Shown here: positions 6,510 through 47,808 of the stretch, piece after piece | Layout: every line of letters starts with the position of its first letter | How positions within the stretch are numbered: position 1 is the stretch's first letter | From: Candidatus Poribacteria bacterium | GTDB taxonomy: Bacteria > Poribacteria > WGA-4E > JAJDTR01 | NCBI GenBank assembly: GCA_965222225.1 | Contig: CBDCTK010000002.1 | Location: 5,571,098-5,635,097, forward strand | Direction: 5' to 3' | Length of the DNA: 64,000 nucleotides | Translations under genes and position numbers: made by a program | The notes under the pieces: generated by a model | What the model was told of the DNA's origin: nothing | The model's input: only the letters and a program-made list of their open reading frames with translations | Databases searched by the model: none

Positions 6510-8288
6510 TTAGACTACAATCTCTTGATATGGGACATACAAGTCAGTTTTGCCGGCCACCTGCTCTTTGACCCCATCCACGATATGGTGCGGCATAAAC
6601 GGTTCACCATCGTACTTGCGAATGTGGCCGTCAGCATCAAAACCGGTTTCACTGCGCAGATAACGCGCGAATTGCCCCGTATAGTTGTTTTCTACCATGA
6701 TTGTCCGCTTGGCTGTCGAGAGCGCCTGTGTGATTTCTTCCACATGCAGAGGAACAATCCATTTTATCGCGAGTTGATTCGTAGGAATACCTTCCTGAGT
6801 TAGGATGCTTGCAGCCTCCTGAATTACACCTTTAGTGGTACCCCAACCGATGAGGGTAACCTCCGCATCTTCGGGGCCTTCCAATTCAGGCGGGGCGATT
6901 AGAGAGACGACGGGTTCCATTTTCCGCTGACGTTTCTCGACCATCGCGCGGCGTATATGCGGATTCGTGAACTCGTCGCTGATTAACCCTCCGTCTTCAT
7001 CGTGTTCATCTGTCGCAACGACATGTAGATGTCCCGGCGTACCGGGCAATGCCCGCGGGGAGATTCCGTTCTCCGTAAGCTTGTAGCGCAAATACGTTTC
7101 TCCGGTGTTATCGGGTTCGGTGATTAGCTCGCCACGGTCGATTGGTTGTTCCCAATTGATGTCATCCGGATCGACAGTCGCGAACCCCTCCGACACTGAA
7201 AGATCAGTGATAACAAGACCGGGGCACTGGAACTTGTCGACCAAATTGAACAACTCCGGGATTGTGTTAAAGCAATCCAATATATCGGTTACCGCGACGA
7301 TAATCTTTGGAAAATCCCCTTGACTGGCACCCAACATCTGCCATAAATCGCCTTGCTCTGTCTTCGTCGGAACACCAGTTGATGGGCCTGCGCGTTGGAC
7401 GTTAATGGCTACCATTGGTATTTCCATCATTCCCGCGCTGCCAATCGCTTCAGTCATAAGCGCAAAGCCGCCACCGGAAGTGGCACACATGGCACGACAA
7501 CCGGCATGAGCGGCACCAATCACCATATTGATGACGCCAATCTCATCTTCGACTTGTCTAACCATGATTCCCAAATCGTTCGCATTTTCAGCCATCCAGT
7601 GAAGAACACCGGTAGAGGGGCTCATAGGATAGGCGCAGTAAAAATTGACACCTGCTGCAGCACCACCCATGGCGAGCGCCTCGTTGCCACCAACTTGGGC
7701 AAGGGGTTTGTCTTTCTGCGGGAGCGAGGTAGAATAGGGAACGAAATGCTTGACCGCATAGTCATACGCGGCGCGAGCTACATCAACGTTTTCGTCAACG
7801 ACAGCTTGTCCTTTTCGCTTAAATTGGAGCGTTAGGATTTCCTCTAGAAATTTGAACTCCAGACCGAGAAGATGGAGAATAGCCGCAACCGCCACGGTGT
7901 TCTGGACCAACTTATTTCGACTGTTGTTGCTAAGCTCCTTTACCGGCATTGGACACAGTTGAAGTCCTTCAGAAACTATTCCGGGCTTGATAGTATCACT
8001 GTTAAAAATCGCTGTTCCGCCCGGCACAACATGCTGAAGGTGGCGATCCATGGTGTCTTGGTTCAAACAGAACAACAGATCAATCTTATCTCCATGGCTT
8101 GTGACCGGTTCTGTGCTGATTCGCGTGGTCAGAAAAATGTGACCGCCACGGATGATAGACTGATAGGAATTGTAAGAAAAAAACTGGAGACCGCGACGTG
8201 CACAGATTCTAGCGAGAATGTTGCCAGGGGTAGCGATTCCCTGCCCAGCGGCCCCGCCGATAGCAATCGCGAAGTCAAATTTCGCCAT
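6510..8288 (-). CDS. korA: 2-oxoacid:ferredoxin oxidoreductase alpha subunit (gamma-alpha fusion)
   Basis: GGAAGQG, IRGGH, YPMSPST, EDEI, TSGGGF and QRAGPSTG motifs. Confidence 0.93.
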   Translation of the reverse strand: MAKFDFAIAIGGAAGQGIATPGNILARICARRGLQFFSYNSYQSIIRGGHIFLTTRISTEPVTSHGDKIDLLFCLNQDTMDRHLQHVVPGGTAIFNSDTIKPGIVSEGLQLCPMPVKELSNNSRNKLVQNTVAVAAILHLLGLEFKFLEEILTLQFKRKGQAVVDENVDVARAAYDYAVKHFVPYSTSLPQKDKPLAQVGGNEALAMGGAAAGVNFYCAYPMSPSTGVLHWMAENANDLGIMVRQVEDEIGVINMVIGAAHAGCRAMCATSGGGFALMTEAIGSAGMMEIPMVAINVQRAGPSTGVPTKTEQGDLWQMLGASQGDFPKIIVAVTDILDCFNTIPELFNLVDKFQCPGLVITDLSVSEGFATVDPDDINWEQPIDRGELITEPDNTGETYLRYKLTENGISPRALPGTPGHLHVVATDEHDEDGGLISDEFTNPHIRRAMVEKRQRKMEPVVSLIAPPELEGPEDAEVTLIGWGTTKGVIQEAASILTQEGIPTNQLAIKWIVPLHVEEITQALSTAKRTIMVENNYTGQFARYLRSETGFDADGHIRKYDGEPFMPHHIVDGVKEQVAGKTDLYVPYQEIVV

Positions 8289-8702
8289 CTTTTGTCCTTT
8301 CTTGCCAATATACTCCCACTTTGGTCTTAAATGAACATATCATTATTTAGCATAAAACGACGAATTTATTCAGGTTGCCGTTATTGTTTAAGTCACTGGT
8401 CAGATATGTTTTGATGGTTGGGTGATACCGGTTGGTGGGAAACTTGGCAACACTTAGCTATAAGGATAACACATCTACATTAGGATTTCAACTGAATTCT
8501 GTATTTTTAAGCGCATTCGCATCTGGTCATTTGTTGTAGAGGCGGCTCTGCGTTGTTCAAGACCGGATGTGCTATGATTACGAGAAGAGGGGAAATCGAG
8601 GATTTGACAATCGTCGATTTCAGAAGAAGTTGCGATTTTGAGATCGCTCCTACAGGATAGCGGAACATTCTCGTTGGTCCAAAACTACATAGAAATCAAA
8701 TC

Positions 8703-9305
8703 TTACAACTGATTCAATGCACTTTCCGCCTTGAGCGTTCCAATCTGTTTTAATGCATACACAGCGTGTTGACGAACTCGCTCGGATTCATCGCGCAAAA
8801 CTTCCGTTAGCATGGGGATGGCGTCGTACGCGGATTCCCCGAGACGAGCGAGTGCAATAACCACATTTACGCGAACCTCTACATCTTCGTCGCGTAAGGC
8901 TTGGGTCAATGCAGGAACCGCGGCGACAGCGGAACTACGCATTATTCCCAGTGCCCTCGCAGCGTTTTCGCGAACAGGTTGATACGAATCTCCGAGGGCT
9001 TGAATCAATGCCGGCACCGCAGCTTCACCTAGCCTGCCGAGTGCGTCGGCGGCATTGAGACCCCGATGCTTTATCTCATCTCCCATCGCCTCGATTAACT
9101 CGGGAATAGCGGGGGCACCAATCCGAGCAAGTGCGTCAGCGGCGCCATCGCACACATCCCAGATATCGTATCCAAGCGCTTCTATCAGCGCGGGTACAGC
9201 GGGGGCACCGATTTCAACCAAAGCAGAAGCCGCGGCATCTTGGATCTCATCATCTTCATCGCCTAATTCTTCGATTAGCTCATCTATATCGTGATTTTGT
9301 TCCAT
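8703..9305 (-). CDS. HEAT-repeat protein
   Basis: Tandem AAxALxxIGxPAVPALIEAL repeats. Confidence 0.88.
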   Translation of the reverse strand: MEQNHDIDELIEELGDEDDEIQDAAASALVEIGAPAVPALIEALGYDIWDVCDGAADALARIGAPAIPELIEAMGDEIKHRGLNAADALGRLGEAAVPALIQALGDSYQPVRENAARALGIMRSSAVAAVPALTQALRDEDVEVRVNVVIALARLGESAYDAIPMLTEVLRDESERVRQHAVYALKQIGTLKAESALNQL

Positions 9306-9310
9306 TACTG

Positions 9311-10636
9311 CTAATTCGTTCTCCGAGTTTTCTCAAGAATGGTGTTAAGCCGATCCACTTGCTCTTTGCGCAAGCGGTTATATACCCGCTCCGAAATCTC
9401 TTTTTTCTCATACATTTGGTCGAGGCGCGTAACCATTTCAAGTCGTGAAATTCGTGCATGTTCAAGGTCATCGGAATCGAGTTTGTTCAGCCAACTCGCA
9501 TCGGGAGCGGTTTGAGGTTCGTCCGGCTTGGCGGTTTGCGCCCCGCTGGAGCGCACCATGAAGATTGCCGCGACCAAGAAGCCACTGGCACACGCCGCAG
9601 CAAATGCGATTAGGGCAATCATCTTGGCGTTTGCGGGTTGGCTTAGGCTCAGCCCCGCATTCCTCCCCGCCGATGTGACCGGGGCAACCTTGAAATTAAG
9701 CAGGGCGGTCTTGCCGATAGGCAACGGTTTGGCGGGATTGATGGCGTAAATGATGTACGTCGTTTCGTGAATCTGTTCTCGACGACCAGCGCCCAAAATA
9801 GGGGATTGAGGCGTGAGCGGTAATCCCTCGGTGATGAAGACATAGAGCTGGTCGGTATCAAAGGAGAGCGCGCGCGACAGATCCAAACCGGAATTCTCAA
9901 TGTGCATGATGTAGGAGAAGCCGGAACCGAATTTTCCCGGCGGCAGCGGTTGTTTGGATATCAGCTTGTTCGATTCTAGGGCAAGATCTTTGCTTATCAT
10001 AGAGTCAATCTGGAGACCTTCATAACCGATTGGCAGGTTCAGATACATTCCCACGGATTGGCTGTTGACCGTTGTCCGGAACTCCATTTCGCTCGTATTT
10101 TCGAATTGAATGAGTTCCATTATCGATACAGCGCCATCGGGCGCATGGTCCGGCGGGGGCGGTGCGATGATAATCGTGTGCCCGCGAACTTTCACCACTG
10201 AATGGTCATCGGTGAAATTCCCAATTTCGATGTCCACATTGGACTCTGGTACCCAAGTCGACAACACCAGATCGGTTTCCACGTGTTCCTTATCTTCGTG
10301 GATGGTCGAAACGCCATAGTACGTTTCCATGCCGAATGGCAGGTTATCGAAGCTGTATGAGCCATCGCTCGTCGTTATTGTTTCACGCTGCTGCGTCTCC
10401 GCACCTTGGTGAATCGTTAACGTGACCTTCTGGTCTACAAGCGGTTTATTGCTTTGCCTATCAATTACTTTCCCTTTTATGGTGCCCGTTGCGTTTTGTG
10501 CTGTAGCAGGCGAGAGAAAGACGAGATAGGTGGCTGCAAAGCAAGATACCAAGAGGATGAATCGCGAAAAATGCAATCCATGGGGCGCGGCGGGTGTTTG
10601 GCAGTTTGGCAATTGTGGAGTCCAGACGATTTGCAT
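9311..10636 (-). CDS. Membrane-anchored protein with carboxypeptidase-regulatory-like (Cna-B-like) domain, in the ccm operon
   Basis: Signal peptide ending ATA/Q, GTIKGKV and DGSYSFDNLP, C-terminal TM and CcmI-like LDQMYEKKEISE tail; ATG at 10636 preferred. Confidence 0.7.
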   Translation of the reverse strand: MQIVWTPQLPNCQTPAAPHGLHFSRFILLVSCFAATYLVFLSPATAQNATGTIKGKVIDRQSNKPLVDQKVTLTIHQGAETQQRETITTSDGSYSFDNLPFGMETYYGVSTIHEDKEHVETDLVLSTWVPESNVDIEIGNFTDDHSVVKVRGHTIIIAPPPPDHAPDGAVSIMELIQFENTSEMEFRTTVNSQSVGMYLNLPIGYEGLQIDSMISKDLALESNKLISKQPLPPGKFGSGFSYIMHIENSGLDLSRALSFDTDQLYVFITEGLPLTPQSPILGAGRREQIHETTYIIYAINPAKPLPIGKTALLNFKVAPVTSAGRNAGLSLSQPANAKMIALIAFAAACASGFLVAAIFMVRSSGAQTAKPDEPQTAPDASWLNKLDSDDLEHARISRLEMVTRLDQMYEKKEISERVYNRLRKEQVDRLNTILEKTRRTN

Positions 10637-18665: not shown

Positions 18666-19116
18666 GAAGTGTTTTCCTTTCCATTTAGAGAGGTTGTTTT
18701 TTCAAGTACGAGTGAATTTGAAGACCTTGATTCTATAATACTCTGAAGACGGGAGTCGGTGCAAGAGAATAGGGAGTGTTACGGGGCAATCGCGTCTGTT
18801 TTGGGGTGTGAGGTTGGTTGCCAGTGCACACCCTACAAGAAGTGGTGCATAGATTTCATATTGTTATGATGGTCGCGGATTCTCTAGAATCAGGTGCGAT
18901 TGCCCGGATGTTTTGGAGCGAATCTCTTGACGCCGTGTGGAGATAATGCTAGCATTGAGGTTTGCAGGTTTGTACAAATCTTTCAATTGAAAGACTTCCA
19001 ATTGCCAACTCTCTTTAGAATTTGCACTCAAAACTAAAGCACCATGAAACTTGATTGTTGCTAGGTTCAAACTCGGACCGAATTGAAGTTGAACCAACAA
19101 AATTAGGAGGCCTGGA

Positions 19117-19597
19117 ATAGCATATAGTAACGTACCCATTGGAACATCCAACCCCACCTGCTTTGTGACTTTGGTTGATCAATCCGCTTCAATGAGCGAA
19201 TATTGGGGCTCCGGCACTACGAAAGCAGAAGGGGCTACACGCGCCGTAAATCGTGTGATTGAGGAGCTTGTTTTGGCGTGTCGAGCGGGAGAAAATGTAA
19301 AGGCCCGATGTTACGTCTCTGTTATTGGCTACGGCGGCTTCGGCGAGCGGGTCGATTGCGTCGTTGATGGCATGATATCAGAGGTTGCTTCAGCACTTAT
19401 TGCTGTCAAGAAAGTCAAGAAGCGCATCCTCAACGGGGCAGGAGGGGTTATTGAGGTTGACGTGGAATCCCAGCACTGGAAAGCACAAACGAACACTCAC
19501 CGGCCATACGGGACAAGTGTTCGGCGTCACGTTTAGCCCAGATGGGACAACGCTTGCTAGCGCGAGTGCCGATAGAACCATCCGTCTGTGGCACTAG
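19117..19597 (+). pseudogene. Chimeric remnant: vWA-protein N-terminus joined to the last repeat of a WD40 gene
   Basis: AGGAGG then ATA in place of ATG at 19117; NPTCFVTLVDQSASMS (MIDAS DxSxS); from about 19462 another frame reads TLTGHTGQVFGVTFSPDGTTLASASADRTIRLW. Confidence 0.75.
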
Positions 19598-19748
19598 ACC
19601 CCTGACACATTTCTTGTATTGCTGAGTTCTTGTAAATAAAAAGATAGCCAAATACTTCCGTTGGATGCTGAGTAAATTCAGGTTCGTCCACGAAACATTC
19701 TCCTTTTTTGCTTCCGACTCTTCTTTGCGGAATAACTCTAATGACGGT

Positions 19749-21662
19749 TTAAGGTTGATTGAGCTCTTCAACTACCCTCCTGATTTCTTTTGCTATATCA
19801 GTAAAGGCTTCATCTTGATTCTCCCATTTCGTCACAGGTAGCACATTCTTAGGTAACGCCTGAAGTTTTCCAAATGGCGCTTCCTTCCAATCCACTGGGC
19901 GGAGAATTATGGGAATCACACGAGCGTCTCCAGCGGAGTGTCGTTTCAATGCTAGGTCCATCTCAACATCAGAACAATAATCAGATGCAATGAAGTCAGA
20001 ACTGATAAGCAAAAGAATAATGTGCGCGGTTTTCAAATGTTCATGAATCTCCCCTTCCCATTCTCTACCACCCGTTATCTTCCGATAGTGCCAATCTTCA
20101 ATGGCTCCCTGTCGTCTCAAAATAGAAAGATGGTTCTCAAGCTGTTCGCGTAGTCCCTCATCTTTATGGGAGTAGGAATAAAAGACCTCAATACCATTCG
20201 ACTGTGATTTTGCACTCATCAGATATTCTCTCTTTGCAATCATTTGAAGGAAGGAATCCGGTTGCAATTGATTGTACGGATTATCATGTATCTCCCGCAT
20301 TCTACGGATTGCGTCTCCTATATGTTTACCATGACGATAGCATAGGTCCCAGATTTTCTCAATTTTTTCTTGATCGTTCGCACCGGGTACATAGTCAATG
20401 AAACCAGCTAACTCACCAAGCATCTCGCGATAAAAGGTTTCAAGATTGAACGACGCGAATTTGTTGGCCAGACGTACATAATCAATAAGTGTTGTTCTAA
20501 CTTTATCTTCTTTGATTTCATTCATGATGAAATCTGATGTGTAAATGCCATCTTCGTCTACATCATCTAATTTCGAACCATAGGCCGCAAATCTTCTGTC
20601 AATACATTGGGAACAACCTCCACAGTGCGTTGCTTGACCAAGATGCTGAAATGTCTGACTGCAGGATACAGTACTCGTTATCAGGTCTTTTCGACCTAGC
20701 TCGGCTAGGCGATTAAAGATGTCTGTTTTGGTTTTCCACAAGAAGGGAGTCGTAATCTTGATTTTCGAATCTTCAATTACCGAAAACAGATTTTCGAGAA
20801 GAACAATTGTTCTTGGATGGGTTGTACGACTCGCTCTTGCATTAATTTGGTCTTGCCGTTTGGGAAAGTTAATTGAAGTAACTCCGTTTTCGTAGACAAA
20901 AATCTCACGCTGTTGTAGGACACATGACAAAGCGTAGCCAATGGATGTGTATAAAAAAGCGCGGGTCCGCTGCGATTCCTCTTTGGCTCGAATCCTGCGT
21001 AAACTGCAATGAAATTTATAGTGGCGAATTCGATTTGGATAGAATCTACATAATGCTTTAATTAACTGACGTTGCGTTTTTATGGTTTTCGGCTGCCCGG
21101 ATTGGTGGCTAATCAACCAGAGTTGGTCGGAAGAGTGTTCAAGCTGCTCTACAACGCCGACCAGCGAATCCAGCCCGCCTGAATAGAGAATGACCTTAGT
21201 ATTTGGCAGTGGTTCAATCACGCACGTTTCATCATCAAACAGACCCGTCTGGGGCGTGGAATGCCCGGGTTGGAAAGTAAAGTGATACGCTTTATCGCCT
21301 GACATGAACAACAGGGCTTCTTTGAGTTTTTCTTTAACTTCCGGCGTATTCCAGAAGTCATAATCTCGAACCTTTACTACAAAGTGAAATGACCGTGCCC
21401 AGCTATGGAACTCTAGGCTACTGTTGTGCCCACGAAAAATCCGTCGATCTGCGCAATAGACGTAAGCCGCAATCTCTAACAAATCAAGGATGCGCTTGGG
21501 AAGATAAAATACGTCACGAATAAAATCGGGAAGTGCGAGTTTAACATTGGAATTTGGCGAAACTAATTCTCTATATTCGAGAATAATAGGTTCAATATTA
21601 GCCCATTGCTTAGGCAAATCCGCCCCGTTACATAATACAATTTGCGGAGAGGTGTTTTTCAT
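19749..21662 (-). CDS. QueC/QatC-family PP-loop enzyme fused to a C-terminal TIR domain
   Basis: YSGGLDS PP-loop, QRTRAFLY, SC..HCGGCSQCIDRR Zn site; TIR VFYSYSHKD, LLISSDFIASDYCSDVE and RVIPIILRP. Confidence 0.9.
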   Translation of the reverse strand: MKNTSPQIVLCNGADLPKQWANIEPIILEYRELVSPNSNVKLALPDFIRDVFYLPKRILDLLEIAAYVYCADRRIFRGHNSSLEFHSWARSFHFVVKVRDYDFWNTPEVKEKLKEALLFMSGDKAYHFTFQPGHSTPQTGLFDDETCVIEPLPNTKVILYSGGLDSLVGVVEQLEHSSDQLWLISHQSGQPKTIKTQRQLIKALCRFYPNRIRHYKFHCSLRRIRAKEESQRTRAFLYTSIGYALSCVLQQREIFVYENGVTSINFPKRQDQINARASRTTHPRTIVLLENLFSVIEDSKIKITTPFLWKTKTDIFNRLAELGRKDLITSTVSCSQTFQHLGQATHCGGCSQCIDRRFAAYGSKLDDVDEDGIYTSDFIMNEIKEDKVRTTLIDYVRLANKFASFNLETFYREMLGELAGFIDYVPGANDQEKIEKIWDLCYRHGKHIGDAIRRMREIHDNPYNQLQPDSFLQMIAKREYLMSAKSQSNGIEVFYSYSHKDEGLREQLENHLSILRRQGAIEDWHYRKITGGREWEGEIHEHLKTAHIILLLISSDFIASDYCSDVEMDLALKRHSAGDARVIPIILRPVDWKEAPFGKLQALPKNVLPVTKWENQDEAFTDIAKEIRRVVEELNQP

Positions 21663-22444
21663 TCCTTATCTCCCTCTCGCTGTAACGCATCACGCATCTT
21701 CCCAAGGGCAATATGTAGAAAGCCTTTAACTGACTTTTGGCTGGGGGCCCCATCTCGTGCGTTTTTGTTAAACCAACCTGCTGCAAAAGACTGCGTAATC
21801 TTCGATGTTTCAAAAGCATGTCGGGAAATCGTATTGACATGGTCTTCTAGGTGCTGACCGAACTCAATTCGATCATCAATGCTTCGTAAAGCCGCCGAAG
21901 CTTCTCTAGCGAGAAAATATTCTAAGTACCGCTGTGTAAACTTAGCGAAAAAAAGACGAGACAACTCACAGAATCCAGCACCATCTCCGGCTTTGCGCCA
22001 TACTTCAAACGGATCTTCGACCGAATTGAAAAGATTCCCCATTGTTGGTTGATTTTGGTCGTACCAACCGGATATGGCATCGCCTGCAGCCTTCTGCGCA
22101 ATCTCCCCGTATTCAAACGAATCCATTTTGGGGTCAACATACTCACTAACCGCTTTTGCAAAGGCAAGTGGTGTTGGATTATCGGGTAACTCGACCCCAG
22201 TTTCTGAAAGCGACATTTGGGGGTTATTTTCACGAGAGGCAACGGCCAGATTAACTAAGAATTGGAACGTACTCAATAGGCCATCATCCTGCGCGAGGTG
22301 GCGAAACCGATCTCGTACGTTATGAATTGTCTTTTGAGCAATATCCGCAACTTCAGCCTCAGATACACTCATTCCTGCGATCTGGTCAACAATATCTCTC
22401 CATTTTTCCGATGTAGGAAGAATTCCTATTCGTTCATGTCCCAT
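21659..22444 (-). CDS. Hypothetical helical protein, QatB-like partner of QueC-TIR
   Basis: 261-aa ORF starting MGHERIG; ATGA overlap with the QueC-TIR gene. Confidence 0.75.
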   Translation of the reverse strand: MGHERIGILPTSEKWRDIVDQIAGMSVSEAEVADIAQKTIHNVRDRFRHLAQDDGLLSTFQFLVNLAVASRENNPQMSLSETGVELPDNPTPLAFAKAVSEYVDPKMDSFEYGEIAQKAAGDAISGWYDQNQPTMGNLFNSVEDPFEVWRKAGDGAGFCELSRLFFAKFTQRYLEYFLAREASAALRSIDDRIEFGQHLEDHVNTISRHAFETSKITQSFAAGWFNKNARDGAPSQKSVKGFLHIALGKMRDALQREGDKE

Positions 22445-22801
22445 CGTTTGATTCCTGTAGTTAGGGCGATTCCGTTATGTATATTATAATAGATGATTCC
22501 GATTGCTTTTAAGTGTAACGGTCGCACACAATGGCGTAGAAGGGGAAACGTCATTGCTTGCGAACTCAATGGGTGCATTCAATGCGCGGAACAACCCCTC
22601 AATGATTTCACTATCAGAGTATAGTGGTGAAACCATAACGCTGTCAATCAATTTGACGTAACATCGTCGGTAATCAACCATCAATCAACGATGATGCCCA
22701 ATTCGTAATAGACCACAGATCTTTCTCATGCTAGTATAGAATCAGCCATGGTAGCTGTCTACACTCGCGGAGTCGGACGCCGAACATTTCTTCCGTTGAG
22801 T

Positions 22802-22837: not shown

Positions 22838-23299
22838 ATGAAGAAAGCCTCTGCTAACGATTCCGCAAAAGTTATAACCGTCAATCGGAAAGCGCGGTAC
22901 GACTACCACTTGCATGACCGCTATGAAGCTGGAATAGCGCTGCAAGGGACAGAGGTCAAGTCGATACGCGCGGGAAGATTGAATTTAGCAGATAGTTATG
23001 CGCGCATCCGCGATGGTGAGGTTTTCCTATTTGACGCTCATATTAGCCCCTATGAACAGGGCAACAGCGAGAACCATGAGCCGAAGCGGCAGCGCAAGTT
23101 ACTGCTGCATCGCCGTGAGATTAGGAAGATTGAAAGTAAGATTCGGTCGGCAGGTATGACGGTTGTGCCGACAAGAGCGTATTTCAATAACGGCAAAGTA
23201 AAACTTGAAATCGCAATCGCATCTAGCAAACACTCTTACGATAAGCGTGATGTCATTGAAAGAGAGGAAGCGCGTCGCGCTATCCGTTCTCATCTCTAA
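22838..23299 (+). CDS. smpB: SsrA-binding protein
   Basis: NRKARYDY, EAGIALQGTEVKSIR and RKLLLHRREI. Confidence 0.98.
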   Translation: MKKASANDSAKVITVNRKARYDYHLHDRYEAGIALQGTEVKSIRAGRLNLADSYARIRDGEVFLFDAHISPYEQGNSENHEPKRQRKLLLHRREIRKIESKIRSAGMTVVPTRAYFNNGKVKLEIAIASSKHSYDKRDVIEREEARRAIRSHL

Positions 23300-23363: not shown

Positions 23364-23717
23364 GGGGGTGAAAAGGTTTCGACGTGAGTCAATGAGATAA
23401 GAGTTGCATGCCGAGGTTTCCGCAGGCCTCGTTAAACAGGCGGAAAAAACTTAACTGCTGATTACGAACAGTTAGCTCTAGCTGCTTAAAGCAGCTACGC
23501 TCGGCTAGCTTGCGGCCCGTCGAGTTAGTCGAGCGCCAAACAACGGGCTCGGCAGCTTGTTTGTTCTTAAGGGACAAGTTGCGAGAAAATACTTGAGATA
23601 GCCTGCACGAATCTTGCATAAGGGAGTCGTTACGGTGAAGCACCAAAACTTATGCTAAGCATGTAGTAGCTTTTATTGAACTGCTCTCGGACACGGGTTC
23701 GATTCCCGTCACCTCCA
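23364..23717 (+). ncRNA. ssrA: tmRNA
   Basis: 5' GGGGGTG..TTCGAC and 3' GGTTCGATTCCCGTCACCTCCA tRNA-like arms; tag ORF 23457-23489 reads (A)ADYEQLALAA*; CCA not encoded; follows smpB. Confidence 0.96.
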
Positions 23718-23745
23718 TCAGATTTTTGGATCCAATCCCACCACG

Positions 23746-23923: not shown

Positions 23924-24595
23924 GTGCAAACACTAGACAGAGCAAAACTGATAGTAAGAGCTCAAGTCAGCGATCTGCTGACAAAGTTGGAGGACGGGCA
24001 AAAAACTCGGCAACTGGTGCTGGAGGAGGTGCGCGACGATATCCGGGGGATAAAGTCACTCGTCGTCAACGCCATTGCTGGTCTTAAACTGATTGAGCGC
24101 CAAATTGAAGAAACTGATGCCGAAGCGGAAAAATGGGATGCTAGGGCAGCAATTGCCTTGGAAAAATCCGAAGAGGATTTGGCTCGTCGTGCGCTTGCCC
24201 GTAAGAATGAGCTAACACGAAAAGTGGAACGCTATCGCGAGCAGCTTACTGCGCAACGGGCTACTATTGATACACTTAAATCAAGTCTGAAATCACTGGA
24301 ATCAAAATTAGAGGAAATGCGTTTCGACGCGGCGCGAATGGATGTCCAAGAGAAGCTATCCCGACGATCTGCGCTCGGAACGACCTCTGCGAGCGATTAT
24401 GTCATTGGTGACAGCGCCTTTGACGCTTATGATCGTATGGTTGAACAGGTGCGAGACTTAGAAGCACATGTCGAGGCGTTCGATGAATTGATGCAAGGCG
24501 ATAAACTGGAACAGGAGTTCCATGCATTGGAACGTAAGAATGAGGTCGATAAGGATTTAGCGGCTCTAAAGTCCAAACTCTCGGCGGGCGAGTAA
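23924..24595 (+). CDS. PspA/IM30 family protein
   Basis: Coiled coil, EDLARRALARK and AFDAYDRM; GGAG RBS. Confidence 0.85.
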   Translation: MQTLDRAKLIVRAQVSDLLTKLEDGQKTRQLVLEEVRDDIRGIKSLVVNAIAGLKLIERQIEETDAEAEKWDARAAIALEKSEEDLARRALARKNELTRKVERYREQLTAQRATIDTLKSSLKSLESKLEEMRFDAARMDVQEKLSRRSALGTTSASDYVIGDSAFDAYDRMVEQVRDLEAHVEAFDELMQGDKLEQEFHALERKNEVDKDLAALKSKLSAGE

Positions 24596-24658
24596 TTCAC
24601 GGCTGCAGTAGGAGTACCGGGTAGAGAAATGTACTATTGACATCAAACCAGATTTTTG

Positions 24659-24687
24659 TTGAAATTCCATCCCAGTCGCGTTACAAT
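24659..24687 (+). promoter_or_regulatory. Sigma70-type promoter
   Basis: TTGAAA, 17-bp spacer, TACAAT upstream of the DUF151-pspA genes. Confidence 0.5.
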
Positions 24688-24800
24688 TCAACGCAGTTTC
24701 GGGTTACCAGTAAGGTAGTCGTAAAATCTTGCGCGACAACTCGTCTGATTGTAAACTCAGTCGGGTTTAATTCTATCAGGGAATTACAAGGAGAGTAACC

Positions 24801-25289
24801 ATGGTTGAAGTCGACGTAGCATTCATCTCTTTTGACCAGCATGTGGGCACGCCAATTGTCGTGCTGAAGGATAAAGCAGCCGAAGCCAAGCGGATGTTGC
24901 TCATTTGGATCGGTTCACCGGAAGCCGCCGCCATTCAGTCAAAAATCAAGGGCGAGGAGGCTACGCGCCCGATGACACACGATTTGATGAAGAATCTAAT
25001 TGAAAATCTTCAGGGGGAGATAGCTTCTGTCTGTGTCCACTCCGTGGAAGACGGAACCTATTTCGGGCAAGTTACGCTTCATGTGGATGGACAGACGATT
25101 GATATTGATGCCCGTCCAAGCGATGCCATCGCGCTTGCATTGCGGTTTGAAGCCCCAATCTACGTTGCCGAGGAGGTCATTGAAGAGCATGGCCTCTCCG
25201 AGGACGATTTGAAAGAGGCGCAACAGGAGCAGACGAAGAGTGTTTTAGAAAACTTAGATGATGAGACGTTGGGCGAGTTTACAGTCTAA
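24801..25289 (+). CDS. Bifunctional nuclease family protein (DUF151)
   Basis: PIVVLKD, IWIGSPEA, RPMTHDL and IDARPSDAIALALR. Confidence 0.92.
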   Translation: MVEVDVAFISFDQHVGTPIVVLKDKAAEAKRMLLIWIGSPEAAAIQSKIKGEEATRPMTHDLMKNLIENLQGEIASVCVHSVEDGTYFGQVTLHVDGQTIDIDARPSDAIALALRFEAPIYVAEEVIEEHGLSEDDLKEAQQEQTKSVLENLDDETLGEFTV

Positions 25290-25316
25290 CTACCAAATCC
25301 GAGAGAGTAACCACCC

Positions 25317-25976
25317 ATGCCAATCTTTGAAAAAATCAGTCGAATTCTCAAATCAAATATCAATGATCTACTAGATCGGGTCGAGGACCCGGAAAAGATC
25401 TTGAATCAGTTGCTTGAGGATATGCGTCATGAGTTCAAAGAAGCAAAAGTGCAGGTGGTTGCGGCAATCCGCGATGGGAATCGGCTTGAAGCTCAATACA
25501 AGGAGAATCTGGAAAGCGCCGAGAATTGGGAAAAGCGAGCTATCGTGTTCATTGAGAATGGCGATGATGTACGCGCGAAAGAAGCGCTGCGCCGCAAGAA
25601 ATCCTTTAGTGAATCGGCTGATAATTACCGAGATCAACTTGAATCCCAGCGGGAAAGTATTGCTGTTCTCAAGGACGGGTTGGCAACGTTGCAGGAGAAG
25701 ATTGAGGAAGCAGAGCAGAAACGCGCCATTCTGATTGCCCGCGCGAAGCGAGCAGAGGCCGAAAAAAACATCCAAGAAACAGTAGCAGGCATCGCGGAAT
25801 CAAGTGCAGCCGATGCCTTCGATCGGATTCAGGACCGCGTGGCTGAAACCGAAGCACACGCCGAGGCGTATCGCGAATTGCGGAATCTTGGCGCGGATGA
25901 TTCTGTTTTTGAACCAAATCCGAACGACGAAATTGAGGATGAACTCGCCAAACTGAAAGCGAAGCTGAAAAAGTAG
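25317..25976 (+). CDS. pspA: PspA/IM30 family protein
   Basis: IFEKISRILKSNIN, EDPEKILNQ and EDELAKLKAKL. Confidence 0.92.
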   Translation: MPIFEKISRILKSNINDLLDRVEDPEKILNQLLEDMRHEFKEAKVQVVAAIRDGNRLEAQYKENLESAENWEKRAIVFIENGDDVRAKEALRRKKSFSESADNYRDQLESQRESIAVLKDGLATLQEKIEEAEQKRAILIARAKRAEAEKNIQETVAGIAESSAADAFDRIQDRVAETEAHAEAYRELRNLGADDSVFEPNPNDEIEDELAKLKAKLKK

Positions 25977-40559: not shown

Positions 40560-42559
40560 ATGGCTACGAAACATACTAAACCGTGGCTTGAGGATGTAGA
40601 TGGAGCGCAGGTACCTCAAATAATCGAGTGTGATGCAGATATTGTCTTGGTTGAAGCTGGCCCTGGCACTGGTAAGACTTTCGGTTTGGCTCGGCGAGTG
40701 CAACGTATTCTCCATCCAGATGGACTAAATGTCCTAGGTAAGAATATATTAGTGGTGGCATTCAATCGTGTAATCGCGAAGCAATTGAGACAAGATATTA
40801 GTGATTGTATAAAACATTCTCCCCACAAAGGTAAACCTGTTATTCGTACAGTCCATGCCCTGTGCTTACAGGTTATAGGTAGCGGGCTGCGAATACTGCT
40901 ACCACACGAGGTGGAGATGATGATTTTTGACATTATCTGCAAATACCCTCAACTCCATGAGGAATATGAAACTCAACCTCGCGCTCAGCAAGCCTTTAAT
41001 AACCACGTCGCTAAGATTGAAGAGCATGTGAAGTTGTGGCAAGCTGTTCGTGAGTGGCTCTTACAACACAAGGCGAACATTATTAGTGACTTGCCAAGTC
41101 TTCTTCTTGATAGTCTTCAAGGGGGGATTTCACCGATATGACTTTTGAGCATGTAATAGTCGATGAATTCCAAGACCTAACACCAGGCGAACAGGAGTTA
41201 TTTCTTCGTCTTAGAAGTGAAACGGGCAAGTTCGTTGCTCTGGGTGACCCGCGCCAGTCTATCTATGCGTTTCGAGGAAATGACCGAGAAGGCTTGGACA
41301 AAATAGAAGAACTTCCCGCATCATCAGGAGGCGCTATAGAGAAGGTCTCAATGACTGAATGTCATCGTTGCCCAAAAAAAATTGTGAAGGCCGCGAATCA
41401 ATTGATGGGACTATATCGGACGGAACCAATGATACCCATAAATGAGGGCGGGGACAACACACATGTAGTGTACTGGAAATCAGAGCAAGCCGAAGCGAAA
41501 GGCATGGCGCAGGCAATTGAAAAAAATATTCAGGCGTTTCCAATCCAAAAGCACTTAGCAATGGTTACCCGTCGCCAGTTTGGTTATTGGCTTCGAGACA
41601 AAATCAACGAGCTTAATCGAGATTTGAAAATTGAACTCAGTTTTTCGGAAAGCCTATTGCAAACGTGGGCAGTACACGAAGCCTTTCTTTATTTTTGCCT
41701 CTTAGTGGATCCCGATGCGCCGACTTGGCGAGCATGGCTCGGGTATCAAGATTCTAGCAGTGGGGAAACATTCAAACCACAAGATCGTAATGCCAATGCA
41801 TACCTAAAGTTCTTAGCTAGCTGTGCGGACAGCATAACAAAAGCAGAAATCATAAAGCTTGCCCAGTCTTCTAAGCAGCCACCAGGTAGGGGAGGCAAGA
41901 ATCTTAAGGGACGTGCAATACGGTACCTTGATCTGACAAGGCAGTTGCAATGGGACGGGGTAGACGGTTTGACATTATTGGAAGAAATCTTTTGTCCATG
42001 CAGATGGATCTTTGATACATCACCCGATCCTGAAACAGCGAGAATTGATATGGGACAGTTACTGTCTAAGGCCCAAAACATTTATCAAGAGTTAATGTCA
42101 GAAGACCCCGATTCTACCGTTCAACAAAAGCTCAAGGAAGTTGCTGGAATGCTTAGATATCAGATCGCGACTCGAGAACCTCTTGCACCTAGCGAACAAT
42201 CGGATCTACAAGTTGCAACCTTGTGGGGCGCGAAAGGTGTTACGGCAGATCATGTCTATGTACTTGGCCTTTGTGACGAAGCCATGCCAGGGGCTCCGCG
42301 TGATGAATATCCCCTAACAGACGAAGATTACTTCCAAGAACAGAAAAGGTTATTCTACGTTTCCATTACCCGATCCAGGAAAACCTTGGTGTTATCTCGC
42401 GCAACGTCCATTCCCTACGGCCTCGCTGCTCAACTTGGTTTAGCCGAGGGCCATGGAAGCCCATATCGTAGATACTTGAAAATGTCCCAATACCTGCGGG
42501 ATATCATACAATATCTTCCCGAAGCTCAAAGAGGTGAGGAGTGGAATGGGTGTGTGTAA
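40560..42559 (+). pseudogene. UvrD/REP-family SF1 helicase split by a frameshift in a G6 run (41121-41126)
   Basis: AGPGTGKT and TVHAL in the first ORF; VDEFQD, GDPRQSIYAFRG, AKG and RLFYVSITR in the second; one extra G fuses them. Confidence 0.85.
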
Positions 42560-44560
42560 ATACGCAAATCTGGATATTGATAATTAGTGACTCTGTTAGG
42601 TGTTCGTGTATTGCATCTGCAAAACCATGACATAGACCAATTCTATGAAAAAAATACCTAGATTTAACCGTTTTCGAGGACCTTTCTGAAAATAGATGGT
42701 TTAGCTTCGGAGTCGTCGGATGAGTGTGCAAAGTATCGGGCTTTCAAGGCATTTCCTCCAAATTCGATTGATGGAAGATTTGACACGCTGACGGTCGAAG
42801 AGGAACTTTGACGTCTTTTCTTGGGGTGTCCAATTTCTTTAGACATCTTTCCAAAATAATCTCGGAGCCCAATGGCGTCTGCCTTTGCTCTAATTCGCTT
42901 GGGAATGATGCCAATCGTCAGAACTCGAATGGCGTCTGAATTCTGTTCATTACATTGCGTTCATTAGGAAAGACGTCTTTTATATGCAATACGGTGAAAC
43001 GAAACCTTCCATTGCTGGAACGTCTGTTTCCTGCGCCTATGTCCGAGAGTAAAATCAACTTACTGTAAACGGCAGATTAAATTGACTTCTGGTGAGTTAT
43101 GAACTTAGTGGAGTATATTGAGAAGTACCAAAGACAAATACATCAGGATAGCGAAAAATTGTTTGTCGAAGATTTCTTGTATCCATTGCTAGGTTCCAAA
43201 ATCGAGGCAATAATACCGCAATATCCCTTTATAGATAGCACGGGAAGACATAGGCGCATTGATTTTGTATATCGAGGGCCTACTTCACCTCTGGCGTTTG
43301 AGGTGAACGGCGAATCGTATCATGCAGAAGGAGTCATCCCAGACGAGATGTTTGATGACAACCTTTTCCGTCAAAATGAAATATTGCGTTCTGGCTATAA
43401 GCTCCTACGGTTCTCCTACAGTCAACTCCAATCTCCGAAGTGGAGATTGATAGTCCAAGAAATGCTTAGAGATTTCCTAGGGACACATGCACCAGAATTA
43501 ATTATGGAATATGAATTGGAACTTTCTTTTCTTCAGAATGAAGTTCTTGAAGCTATTGACTTCTATCGCAATCAGCGGAGTTGGCGTAAAGGGGTAATCA
43601 TCTTGCCAACAGGGACAGGTAAGACCATCCTTTCCGCCATAGACGCGAAAAGGTCTGGAGGACGAGTGCTCTTCTTGGTTCACAGGTTAGACATTCTAAA
43701 ACAGAGTACAGATGCTTATAAGAAGGTTTGGCCCGATATGAAAATGGGTATTTTGACAGGCGAGGCGAGAGAAAATGAAAAAAGCTGCGACGTGCTGTTC
43801 GCGTCAAAAGACACATTACGTCAACCCTCTGAATTGATGCGGTTTGGACGATCTTGGTTCGATTACATTGTCGTTGATGAGGTCCATCACGGACAAAGTC
43901 CAACCTATCGGGAGGTCCTATCTTATTTTGACCCGTCATTCATGCTAGGCATGACGGCAACTCCGGATCGCGTTGACCGAAAAGATATTTTCGAGTTGTT
44001 TGACTATAACAAAATTTATGAAATTCCACTCTCAGAAGTAATCGAGCGTGGTTATCTTGTTCCTTATACGTATCATGGTCTAACGGACAATATTGATTAT
44101 TCAAGAATATCTTACCAAAATCAAAAGTACAGAGTTGACGATCTTGAACGGCATCTGATTGTCCCGGAGCGCAATGAGGCAATACTCAAAGAGTATCTCG
44201 AAAAAGGAAATGGTGATAAGGCTATAGGCTTTTGCGTTTCAGTAAAACATGCTGACAGAATGACGGCATATTTTGTTAACCGTGGAATCTCCGCAGTGCC
44301 AATTCATTCTGGAACCACCAACAGAGACAAGCTTATCTCCGATTTTCGGGAGAATAAATACCAAGTAGCTTTTACGGTGGACCTTTTTAATGAAGGAGTA
44401 GATTTTCCCAACGTTCGCGTGCTACTTTTTCTGCGCCCAACTGAGTCGAAGACGGTTTTTGTTCAGCAACTTGGTCGAGGACTACGTTTATGTGCAGGAA
44501 AAGAAAGAGTGAGGATTCTTGATTTCATTGGAAATTACAAGCGTGCCAATCTAATCAGGA

Positions 44561-45604
44561 TAGGAGTTACGCAGTTGGCTGAAGCGTATAAAGAGGTTGT
44601 GCCAAATAAGCCCGTACCGCATCTCTGACAATAGAGAGTTTTGCATCAAACCAACTGATACCGGTATGATAGCAATAGTGCTCAATTCTCAGAAAGGCTC
44701 TCAGCGCTAAACCGATATGATTTCTTTGAGTGCGAGCAGAGCGCACTTGTGCGCGTTCAATGCCAACAAATTGCTTAATCCCGCGATGATATTCTTCTAT
44801 TGTCCAAGACCATTCGGCATATTTGAGACGCGTCAATTCGTCCATCTGTAAATCATTCGTTGCCCAATATTCAATGTCACCTTCTGGAGTGTCAACCTTA
44901 AATACTCGAATCAATCCATAGCCTTTGAGATGGACAATTGTACCTGTTGATTCACTCGGAAGCGTACTCACCGGACGGTTACCGGAATAATCTTTACTGA
45001 CAAGTCGGTTGGCAGCTAGACGAGTAAGCCACTTCCAACCATGACCTCGCACCGCTTTTAGATTCTTTAGACTGGCATACCAACTATCAAAACACACACA
45101 TTCAGGAGCAAAACCGCGTGTTTTCGCTTCTTCAAGCATGGCGCGGAAATGCTCATTCTTCGTCAAGCCGTCTTTGGCTTTATCATAGATTCGATAATCA
45201 CACGGAATATGTCTATCGCCATCCGTCCAGAGCAAAGTGACCAAGTTAATCCCATTCACAACTCGGTGGTGTTTCCCTGACCAGTGTTTTGTCACGAGTT
45301 CAATCTTTTGTGAATAAGGTTTATCCAGAGTCGAGTCATCTATAACTAAAATTCCGGATTCTAATTTCACCTGATTTCTCGATTCTTGCCACAGTTTGCC
45401 AGTATCGGGTTCCTCTCGATGCAAGAGCCGTGTTATCGAATCGTGAGCCGGAGGATTATCAGCTTGGGGTTGAACTTTTTCCGATTCAAGACAACTGTAA
45501 CTTTTCTGAGCGGCTACCAAGAAATCAATATAGTCAGTGTCAGTATATTTAGGGGGATTCATACTCAAATTATAACCTATTTTCACTCAACTGCGTAACT
45601 CCTA
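44561..45604 (-). mobile_element. IS701-family insertion sequence (1044 bp)
   Basis: Perfect 17-bp TIR TAGGAGTTACGCAGTTG (44561-44577 and 45588-45604); 5-bp TSD CAGGA (44556-44560 and 45605-45609). Confidence 0.93.
44567..45562 (-). CDS. IS701-family DDE transposase
   Basis: IDDSTLDKPY, FDSWY and WTIEEYHRGIKQ; stop codon lies inside the TIR. Confidence 0.92.
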   Translation of the reverse strand: MNPPKYTDTDYIDFLVAAQKSYSCLESEKVQPQADNPPAHDSITRLLHREEPDTGKLWQESRNQVKLESGILVIDDSTLDKPYSQKIELVTKHWSGKHHRVVNGINLVTLLWTDGDRHIPCDYRIYDKAKDGLTKNEHFRAMLEEAKTRGFAPECVCFDSWYASLKNLKAVRGHGWKWLTRLAANRLVSKDYSGNRPVSTLPSESTGTIVHLKGYGLIRVFKVDTPEGDIEYWATNDLQMDELTRLKYAEWSWTIEEYHRGIKQFVGIERAQVRSARTQRNHIGLALRAFLRIEHYCYHTGISWFDAKLSIVRDAVRAYLAQPLYTLQPTA

Positions 45605-46812
45605 CAGGAAATACTTATCGAAAGAAAGTAGATTTATAGAAGTTACCACAGATGGTAGACGACAGCGCAAAATCGAATATATCTATTCTAACGGTTGTGA
45701 GGTATTCTTTGACGACGACGTTGAAGAGATTTTGAACCACCAAGATGCACAAGATTTTGGAGTTTCAAAAGAGGACCTCACGGAAGCCTATTTTACTCTA
45801 GCTGAGGAACTAGGTCGAAAGCCTAGTCGCTCAGATTTGGATATGCAAGGCGAATATAAATCGTCTCTTTATGCAGGTCATTTTGGTTCTTGGTCACTAT
45901 TCCTACGCGAAGTCGGGGAATACACAGAAGCCAGTTATCACTATCCACAAGGCGTACACTTAGGACATATACTTTCGATCCTGAAGGTTTTTGGAAGAGG
46001 TGACCGCTCAGAAACACATTTTGCTGATGAATACCTCCGTTTGCGTGGCGGGCTCGGTACGGGGCGTCTAGCTAAGTATCGTCGCCAGGTGAAATATAAG
46101 GTGCTTGCAGCAATGGAGTTGGGCATACTTACAGATGACCGCAACTATCCAAGCGGCGATGAGTATATCCTTCAATTGACTCCACTTGGGGCGGAACTTT
46201 ATAGTTCAATTGAGCCTCTTCTTGAAGAATTGGATTTATCTTTTCCGCGGGATTCTGTCGGGGTCTTTTCGACGAGAATGCGCTTAAGTGACCGAGCATA
46301 CAATCAAGCCATTAGAGAGTTTATAGAAACTAATGAACAAGCACGTGACATTGTTTTTCGCGTATTTCTGGCGATGCCTGCTGTCCAACAGATGCTGACG
46401 TTCTTGTATCAGGTGTGTCGTACAAAAGAAATTCAACGTAAGATGATTTATGAACAATTTTTCCAAGCCCCTTTTGTGAAACAATTTTGCGATCAAGAAG
46501 GCATAGTTGAAACGACTCTAAAGGCATCCATGCGTAGGTGCCCATTTTTGTTAAATGTCCTTGATGCTTGCGACATCATTAAACTTTCACAAAGCCGCAT
46601 TGTGGTCAATAAGCTTGTGCTTGCCGCTTGGTCTGTACGCCCGCACGCCAAAGAGGACGAAGATATATCCCATACAAGGCTTGGAGCAGTAGAAAGAGCT
46701 TATCGTGATTCTTCCTCGGGATTAACCAGTACGGATTTGAGCGTCGTCCGGGAAATTTACGGTCCAGAATTCCTGACAGAGAATTATTATTTGAAAGATT
46801 TCATCATTCTGA

Positions 46813-47808
<996 letters not shown>

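Follow-up and report, generated by a model that had tools for sequence, protein, structure and literature searches.

QatABCD is an anti-phage system said to have been described by Gao et al. in 2020. Structures of its QatB-QatC core (QatBC) are available as 9y01/9y02, 9vlk and 9zee (PMC13279940, PMC13376578, PMC13639016), and QatBC alone is a minimal defence unit in which the Gly start of QatB is essential and from which QatA and QatD are partly dispensable (PMC13279940), the defensive role of the canonical pair being proven (PMC13279940; PMC13434339). Met1 of QatB is removed (PMC13376578), a peptide from the QatB N-terminus carrying NDG has been found by liquid chromatography-tandem mass spectrometry (LC-MS/MS) while intact-mass analysis detected no NDG, and the nuclease QatD is a further protein bound by QatB (PMC13639016). 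A related reaction occurs in type IV CBASS, where Cap9 puts 7-carboxy-7-deazaguanine on Gly2 of the CD-NTase (bioRxiv 10.1101/2025.04.06.647259), and Thoeris operons with cap9, cap10 and cap11 have been reported (bioRxiv 10.64898/2025.12.03.692087). Our analysis concerns a gene pair in a 64,000-nucleotide (nt) stretch of a Candidatus Poribacteria bacterium (assembly GCA_965222225.1, contig CBDCTK010000002.1, positions 5,571,098 to 5,635,097; hereafter the window), in which a 261-amino-acid (aa) partner protein is encoded ahead of a QatC-like enzyme fused to a TIR domain. From sequence and models, we put at about 60% the probability that this pair is a self-contained two-gene anti-phage module of QatBC-like type with a fused, swappable effector, and the module is probably gated through the N-terminal glycine of the partner.

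Both genes lie on the minus strand, and all coordinates below are positions in the window:

21659..22444, minus strand: partner gene, 261 aa, open reading frame (ORF) starting MGHERIGI, predicted to be all-helical
22403..22444, minus strand: conserved tail at the partner N-terminus (residues 1-14), M-G-H-x-R-x-G-x-L-P-x-T-x-x-W, from homologue comparison and the predicted interface; once Met is removed the N-terminal peptide would be GHERIGILPTSEK
19749..21662, minus strand: QatC-TIR fusion gene, 637 aa, ORF
20223..21662, minus strand: QatC-like region, residues 1-480 of the 637-aa protein, with the QueC PP-loop core and N- and C-terminal extensions, from profile and fold
21165..21182, minus strand: PP-loop SGGLDS, residues 161-166, from sequence; invariant in 75/75 enzymes
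20604..20663, minus strand: zinc site Cys334 with Cys347/Cys350/Cys353 (C347-G-G-C350-S-Q-C353), from sequence; invariant in 75/75 enzymes
19752..20192, minus strand: C-terminal TIR domain, residues 491-637, from Pfam TIR_2, PADLOC ThsB1 and Foldseek
18775..22780, no strand assigned: insertion of about 4 kb carrying the pair with the region upstream of it and decayed pieces of vWA/WD40 genes, from blastn against same-genus genomes
22647-22618 and 22512-22483, minus strand: upstream of the partner gene, two matches resembling sigma-70 promoters, by consensus only

The sequence-only reading of this DNA had described overlapping genes for 261-aa and 637-aa proteins, and the two ORFs (22444..21659 and 21662..19749) do share an ATGA at 21659-21662, a stop/start overlap read from the sequence. 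The motifs that it named in the larger protein were all found, SGGLDS at residues 161-166, the cysteine zinc site within 334-353 and YCSDVE at 562-567, with the Glu567 codon at 19962-19964. Its statement that queD, queE, queF, a KAP ATPase, TatD and a CD-NTase are missing nearby was likewise borne out: Pfam found none of these families in the 18 ORFs of at least 70 aa in the 8.7-33 kb interval (17 of them 110 aa or longer), nor did PADLOC in the 51 window ORFs outside the insertion. Counts of promoter and terminator sites in the region are not above those in shuffled sequence.

The same arrangement recurs far from this genome. A scan of one genome per species gave 117 relatives of the partner, from which 80 loci were kept; these come from Poribacteria, Chloroflexota, Bacteroidota, Ignavibacteriota, Verrucomicrobiota, Planctomycetota, Armatimonadota and others, including one archaeal bin. 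At 74 of the 80 the next gene is complete and encodes at least 450 aa, mostly with a 4- or 8-nt overlap, which puts the pairing far beyond chance and bears out the supposed linkage of partner homologues to a QueC-type gene. The downstream gene of the other six is truncated, split or at a contig end. Truncated or split QatC-like genes are seen at L038:7783-8571 (263 aa), L036:7779-8162 (128 aa) and L017:1704-2252 (183 aa), which suggests that certain genomes have been losing the cassette through decay; at L032 no QatC-like gene adjoins the partner. Among poribacterial relatives of the enzyme, P0125, P0126, P0167, P0176 and similar proteins (67-70% identity, 452-587 aa) have no recorded TIR match and may be truncated genes or contig-end fragments. 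There is no third constant gene, the top neighbour being common to just 10 of the 80 loci and reflecting related Ignavibacteriota genomes. Within the phylum the partner was found in 12 of 176 genomes, two of which hold remnants only, and in none of the nine other species of the genus. The cassette is mobile. Its sole plasmid member lies beside IS982 on a Leptospira noguchii plasmid, where both genes are labelled 'hypothetical protein' and the enzyme is 37.9% identical to that of the window; in a variant with a lysine-rich tail, described below, genes for HTH_17, a tyrosine integrase and Prim-Pol come next, so that this form of the pair appears to ride an integrative element.

Judged by its residues and profile matches, the large protein is a QatC-type enzyme of the QueC family with an intact active-site signature, as befits the QueC-type enzyme with intact PP-loop proposed earlier. 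It is matched by Pfam QueC (E 4e-10), by the PADLOC QatC model (E 7.2e-49) and by NCBIfam QatC NF041925 (E 3.8e-56), and its best solved relatives in a PDB sequence search are the QatC chains 9vlk_A (E 6.9e-23) and 9zee_B (E 7.4e-16); canonical plasmid QatC are 23-31% identical to it. The full-length AlphaFold model (70-sequence alignment, pLDDT 81, with low confidence in the linker 483-488 before the TIR) matches QatC 9y01_B in Foldseek with E 4.3e-17 and TM 0.70 over 495 columns, far ahead of QueC (3bl5), Cap9 (9nto_B) and then TIR structures, and a match of this extent indicates that the enzyme has the N- and C-terminal extensions of QatC. We took the QatC signature residues as given in a survey of the QueC family (PMC13329287) and compared 75 enzymes, namely the complete downstream proteins of the 74 loci and the 637-aa protein itself. 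D60, SGGxDS at 161-166, R232/R234, E258/G260, H282/P283, K312, C334/347/350/353 and Y374 are invariant in 75/75, and T311 is kept in 73/75. The 637-aa protein thus combines what sets QatC apart, a QueC enzyme with both the extensions and the signature.

The partner has no Pfam or NCBIfam family and just two marginal matches (E ~0.01) in PADLOC. In its AlphaFold model (82-sequence alignment, pLDDT 88.6), a tail of 14 residues leads into a domain made up wholly of helices. Foldseek places QatB 9y02_A and 9y01_A at the top, with probabilities of 0.99 and 0.98, TM 0.51 and 0.52 and E of 0.07-0.1, the remaining matches having TM of 0.1-0.25. By VIA-align, 200 of 215 residues align with QatB 9y01_A at a root-mean-square deviation of 4.3 and Z 11.7, against Z 5.0 for the runner-up. 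For helical bundles such a Z is still under the level that is safe by itself, with chance matches possible. The gap to the runner-up, the coverage and the position beside a QatC homologue together make it likely that the partner, as modelled, is a homologue or close analogue of QatB in fold.

Conservation of the Met-Gly start, which the sequence-only reading had made central, is strong. It is present in 116 of the 120 closest partner homologues, with [M/V/L]GHxR in 113 of them, and xGHxR begins the partner at 80/80 loci from other genomes. Three of the 120 start MG[L/M]LPKS, which keeps Met-Gly on a tail five residues shorter, one starts MDHER with Asp in place of Gly2, and three are fragments or mis-called starts; the MG[L/M]LPKS and MDHER starts may be natural variants or errors. 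A partner profile run against 1.84 billion representatives at 50% identity gave 1060 matches within an E of 0.001, of which 647 pass 1e-10 and 185 pass 1e-30. An xGH start is found in 121 of the 150 matches listed, the other 29 being mostly fragments and three having the motif inside an over-long call, and MGHxRLGxLPxTxxW is still kept at the start of members as remote as E 1e-34. One 723-aa protein, seen in a type of search that makes it weak evidence, joins a partner form (36% of the partner covered) to a QatC-nuclease and is probably a frameshift joining of the two genes.

The predicted complex points the same N-terminus toward the QueC active site. Modelling of the partner with enzyme residues 1-480 gave an ipSAE of 0.84 (three runs: 0.89, 0.83 and 0.84), the best of three controls reaching 0.01; of 80 solved complexes 58 attain the same mark, as do 2 of 110 mismatched pairs. 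Because QatBC complexes are already solved, resemblance to them may account for some of this score. At least 84% of the contacts are common to the runs, and the partner pLDDT is at least 82. In the model, partner residues 2-11 contact enzyme residues 229-232, 269-278 and 350-351, beside the invariant E229, R232, R276 and C350, and the helical body is predicted to contact 386-434 and 473-478. By alignment to PDB QatC, these regions roughly correspond to the loop and C-terminal helices of the experimental QatB-QatC interface (PMC13639016). The prediction supports binding of the partner to the QatC-like region, with tail residues 2-11 lying against conserved residues of the enzyme.

The C-terminal domain is the TIR with a conserved glutamate that had been read there: Pfam TIR_2 matches residues 493-601 (E 7.9e-13), the PADLOC ThsB1-type TIR matches 492-635 (E 5.4e-59), Foldseek matches include RPPT-TIR, Cat1, SNC1 and MAL, and Cat1 is the best TIR match in the PDB sequence search (E 3.9e-4). 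Glu567, the conserved alpha-C glutamate of catalytic TIR domains, belongs to a YCxxxE motif whose Glu is kept in 11/11 TIR-type members and is invariant in 70/70. A TIR at this position is a feature of this protein and not the norm of the family. All 75 enzymes have QueC, 51 of them with a DpnII-MboI restriction endonuclease at the C-terminus and 11 with a TIR; the usual effector is a PD-(D/E)xK nuclease, and the TIR form is a minority. Around 10 of the 75, from Ignavibacteriota, have a lysine-rich tail of ~110 residues instead:

~7780-9550 in each of L059, L062, L065-L067, L069, L072, L074 and L079, from Ignavibacteriota and Melioribacter: lysine-tail variant, with no Pfam family in the tail

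A basal lysine-tail member (L043) has a shorter tail of 91 aa, and in a Verrucomicrobiia member (L026:2864-4945) a 224-aa C-terminal region with no family assigned replaces the nuclease.

Exchange of the effector among homologues, for which the sequence-only reading had suggested a survey, is supported. On a quick IQ-TREE tree of the QatC-like part (80 rows, four canonical QatC as outgroup), the enzyme family forms a single clade (support 100), set off by a long branch, and TIR forms make two separate clades among nuclease forms, one of eight poribacterial rows (99) and one of three Armatimonadota rows (100). The branches starred on the tree force at least two changes between nuclease and TIR, and all effector labels together need 5 changes, compared with 21.5 in shuffles. 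On this tree the TIR has taken the place of the nuclease at least twice, and since the two domains stand in the same position and were exchanged, the TIR is most simply taken to be the effector, an NADase.

We infer for the pair a role in defence, a reaction at Gly2, a trigger, assembly as the activating step and an NADase activity, in the following way. The two genes would share their origin with the QatB-QatC core of QatABCD. The partner would bind the QatC-like part, lose Met1 and insert its G-H-x-R-x-G-x-L-P tail into the PP-loop active site, where the enzyme would spend ATP on activating a carboxylate, most likely 7-carboxy-7-deazaguanine from the queuosine pathway of the host by analogy with Cap9/CdnD and QatC/QatB. 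The activated carboxylate would then be moved to the alpha-amine of Gly2, and the state of the complex would gate the C-terminal domain of the enzyme. Both TIR and nuclease need dimerisation or higher assembly, which suggests that the enzyme-partner complex controls self-association; here the TIR would most likely deplete NAD+ once several copies are brought together, and in most relatives its place is taken by a PD-(D/E)xK nuclease. Abortive infection would follow. The precursor is plausibly available, as elsewhere in the genome there are a QueC of the canonical kind (264.6 bits), three matches like PTPS/QueD and a full-length radical-SAM gene like QueE whose 81.9 bits are under the equivalog cut-off.

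The insertion that carries the pair (18775-22780) sits between a DUF5069 gene and smpB. In blastn comparisons with two same-genus genomes, homology ends at 18772/18774 and restarts at 22780/22795, these genomes holding just 390 or 310 bp at the site, and in a third the DUF5069 gene and smpB are also close together. No convincing attachment-site repeats were found at the insertion ends. Inside the insertion, on the plus strand, are decayed pieces: a vWA-like N-terminus with DxSxS at 19165-19536 and one WD40 repeat in another frame at 19385-19597. Contigs X13, X16 and X18 from RNA runs are without one base at 19506, which would join the vWA and WD40 frames, and even then the product would be a short fragment. 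The insertion lies just upstream of smpB-ssrA, and beyond it we noted:

22838-23299: smpB
23364-23720, plus strand: tmRNA gene directly after smpB (Rfam RF00023, 207 bits)
23924-25976, plus strand: two PspA/IM30 genes around a gene with a bifunctional-nuclease domain (PF02577), directly after the tmRNA gene

A second cluster of PADLOC matches lies ~20 kb off, at 41138-47805:

41138-42556: piece of a UvrD/GajB-like helicase
43099-44625: protein like a type IV methyl-directed restriction enzyme
46825-47805: type II methyltransferase

A number of results weigh against the reading of the pair as a QatBC-like defence module. To call the partner QatB-like is defensible on its fold and predicted binding mode and fails on its sequence. 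NCBIfam QatB NF041924 (E up to 1) misses all three of the family members tested, the window partner included, and scores three canonical QatB at 137, 71 and 66 bits as a positive control; no PDB sequence is matched by the partner-family profile up to an E of 10; and hhalign of the family with a Shewanella QatB, whose annotated start may be wrong, gives a probability of 0.3. We accordingly rejected a sequence kinship between partner and QatB. The attachment by Atlas of Pfam PF28083 (QatB) to a cluster scoring 0.88 is a lead only. What the partner shares with QatB is the fold and, by prediction, a Met-Gly tail placed at the QatC active site. That tail has ~14 residues, compared with 55-92 before the helical domain in canonical QatB, and the geometry may therefore differ. 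As for the enzyme, NF041925 scores it at 190.7 bits, below the equivalog cut-off of 280, and modification by canonical QatC is itself inefficient, with the first substrate disputed (PMC13376578; PMC13639016). The match of the TIR to a ThsB model makes a signalling role possible.

Neighbours of the pair in other genomes are often defence genes, including type IIG, I and III restriction-modification (R-M), Drt4, GajA, bSEFIR, PD-Lambda-2, dGTPase, HmaC and several PDC candidates. Among 139 nearest-neighbour ORFs from 75 loci (L076-L080 being left out for size), 42 have PADLOC matches at the pre-set E of 1e-10, compared with 8 of the 51 window ORFs used as control, the latter mostly to generic domains, a difference that is not significant (Fisher p 0.06); at 1e-40, a threshold picked afterwards, the counts are 28/139 and 2/51 (p 0.006). 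These statistics treat related genomes, which are not independent. Because of the p of 0.06, the later choice of threshold and this kinship, the association of the cassette with defence islands is suggestive without being decisive. Here the pair is flanked by housekeeping genes and not by defence genes. It is covered by contigs from three metatranscriptome runs of a single study, including one contig (20043-22718) that runs from one gene into the other, and over 183 nt by a fourth run of a different study; contig depth is 5-30 for the pair, 200-480 for smpB and over 10,000 for the tmRNA. Metatranscriptome contigs cannot prove transcription or a single transcript, and the evidence that the pair is expressed is weak. 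A joint in two RNA runs that skips 20070-20283 was disregarded, its shorter side having only 25 letters.

The same locus can be read in other ways. The chemistry may be different from the one set out above, whether adenylation, transfer of another carboxylate to Gly2, or action on a non-protein substrate with the Gly-His-x-Arg tail as pseudo-substrate or regulator. One QatBC study left the first substrate of QatC unidentified (PMC13376578), and in another NDG on QatB went undetected by intact mass but was seen on the QatB peptide by LC-MS/MS (PMC13639016). The GHxR tail in place of the GTS of QatB and the long branch that parts the family from the canonical QatC would suit a changed reaction; the retention of all residues common to QueC, Cap9 and QatC, in a genome that can probably supply 7-carboxy-7-deazaguanine, makes it unlikely in our view. 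It is quite improbable that the pair is an addiction or conflict cassette of mobile elements, akin to a toxin-antitoxin pair, in which the partner restrains the TIR or nuclease and the QueC chemistry just locks the complex. A mere scaffold would have no need of catalytic residues that are invariant in 75/75 enzymes, and the frequent defence genes nearby (type IIG, type I R-M, Drt4, GajA, bSEFIR, PD-Lambda-2) and the proven defensive role of canonical QatBC (PMC13279940; PMC13434339) also speak against such a cassette. In its favour are the tight coupling of the genes, their patchy spread over 12/176 genomes, the copies on the IS982 plasmid and on an element with integrase and Prim-Pol, and the insertion of the pair here amid housekeeping genes, and the two roles are not mutually exclusive.

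A further reading keeps the architecture and the role in defence but makes the TIR a signal synthase like Thoeris ThsB, producing an NAD-derived messenger for an effector encoded elsewhere. That ThsB1 is the best PADLOC match of the TIR (5.4e-59), and that Thoeris operons with cap9/cap10/cap11 have been reported (bioRxiv 10.64898/2025.12.03.692087), gives it some footing. We nevertheless consider it very improbable: neither a ThsA-type effector nor any other that senses a ligand occurs in the window, none is kept as a neighbour of the pair across loci (top neighbour at 10/80 loci), and most relatives hold a nuclease at the position of the TIR, that is, an effector rather than a signal maker.

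More speculatively, within the QatBC-like reading that we prefer, the nucleobase mark itself may be the switch. Gly2 would be tagged only when infection alters the supply of substrate, for example by phages making their own 7-deazaguanine precursors for DNA modification, and the tagged tail, a second messenger tethered to a protein, would nucleate assembly of the TIR or nuclease. We think this rather unlikely; if true, tagging by the QueC family would be a general and modular way of licensing interchangeable immune effectors, comparable to the ubiquitin-like conjugation of type II CBASS. Whatever the switch, the family wires a QatBC-like core directly to recognisable effectors, nuclease or TIR in the same position, and so provides a system of just two genes whose output, loss of NAD+ or cleavage of DNA, is simple to read and could serve to ask what N-terminal tagging by the QueC family does in immunity. 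The pair thus exposes a visible effector for this kind of protein tagging, in a family that is large, spread over many phyla and seemingly unnamed in annotation. Its proteins are publicly called 'hypothetical protein', 'TIR domain-containing protein' or '7-cyano-7-deazaguanine synthase', the last being probably a mis-annotation.

The architecture had not been recognised as a described system, and this stands for the open literature (supplements and subscription journals lying outside that scope), where no description of a fusion of QueC with TIR or restriction endonuclease was found, and for PADLOC-DB 2.0.0 and NCBIfam 20 (DefenseFinder lying outside it), which have no model for the partner. 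In the excerpts available, the word 'TIR' is nowhere in the Qat structure papers, the QueC-family survey or the deazaguanylation preprint, and a census of qat operon forms does not mention such fusions (PMC13434339). Thoeris operons with separate cap9/10/11 genes are the nearest published case. The two-gene module is real and intact, and it is apparently undescribed.

Comparison with known systems places it as follows. Like type IV CBASS (9nto), the pair would bring an enzyme of the QueC family to Gly2 at the N-terminus of another protein, and Cap9 is a structural match (E 7.2e-4); unlike it, the window and the neighbours of the pair contain no CD-NTase, no TGT-like Cap10 and no cyclic-nucleotide effector, and Cap9 is without QatC-type extensions, aligning over 208 columns compared with 495 for QatC. 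With cap9/10/11 Thoeris it shares the presence of a TIR and a QueC-family enzyme in one immune locus. The ThsB TIR of those operons, in the excerpt available, is a separate protein, a predicted substrate of Cap9/Cap10 that signals to a separate effector, whereas the TIR of the present pair is part of the enzyme chain and the Gly start belongs to the other protein; no ThsA-type effector is present in the window, and 1 of the 139 neighbours (at L010) matches ThsA/LmuA-type SIR2 models. The TIRs of Cat1 and SARM1 are NADases after assembly. Cat1 (9mud) and SARM1 resemble the fusion in joining a TIR with catalytic Glu to a sensing or regulatory module, which in our case is a QatC-type enzyme with a protein partner and not a sensor of cyclic oligoadenylate or an ARM/SAM assembly.

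From QatABCD the pair differs as follows. Neither QatA (a KAP P-loop NTPase) nor QatD (TatD) is present in the window or among the 139 nearest neighbours, the tail of the partner is short (~14 residues, GHxRxGxLP) in place of the long QatB tail starting GTS, and the effector, TIR or PD-(D/E)xK nuclease, is fused to the enzyme where Qat has a separate TatD nuclease that binds QatB. With QatA and QatD missing, and a partner that fails the QatB sequence model, the pair is not a member of QatABCD as defined. As in QatABCD, the enzyme belongs to the QueC family, is extended at both termini in the manner of QatC and keeps the catalytic signature in full, the overlapping gene upstream encodes a helical partner of predicted QatB fold starting Met-Gly, and the predicted interface uses the same loop (~269-278) and C-terminal helices as solved QatBC. 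The pair is neither type IV CBASS nor Thoeris, and it works most like the QatBC core.

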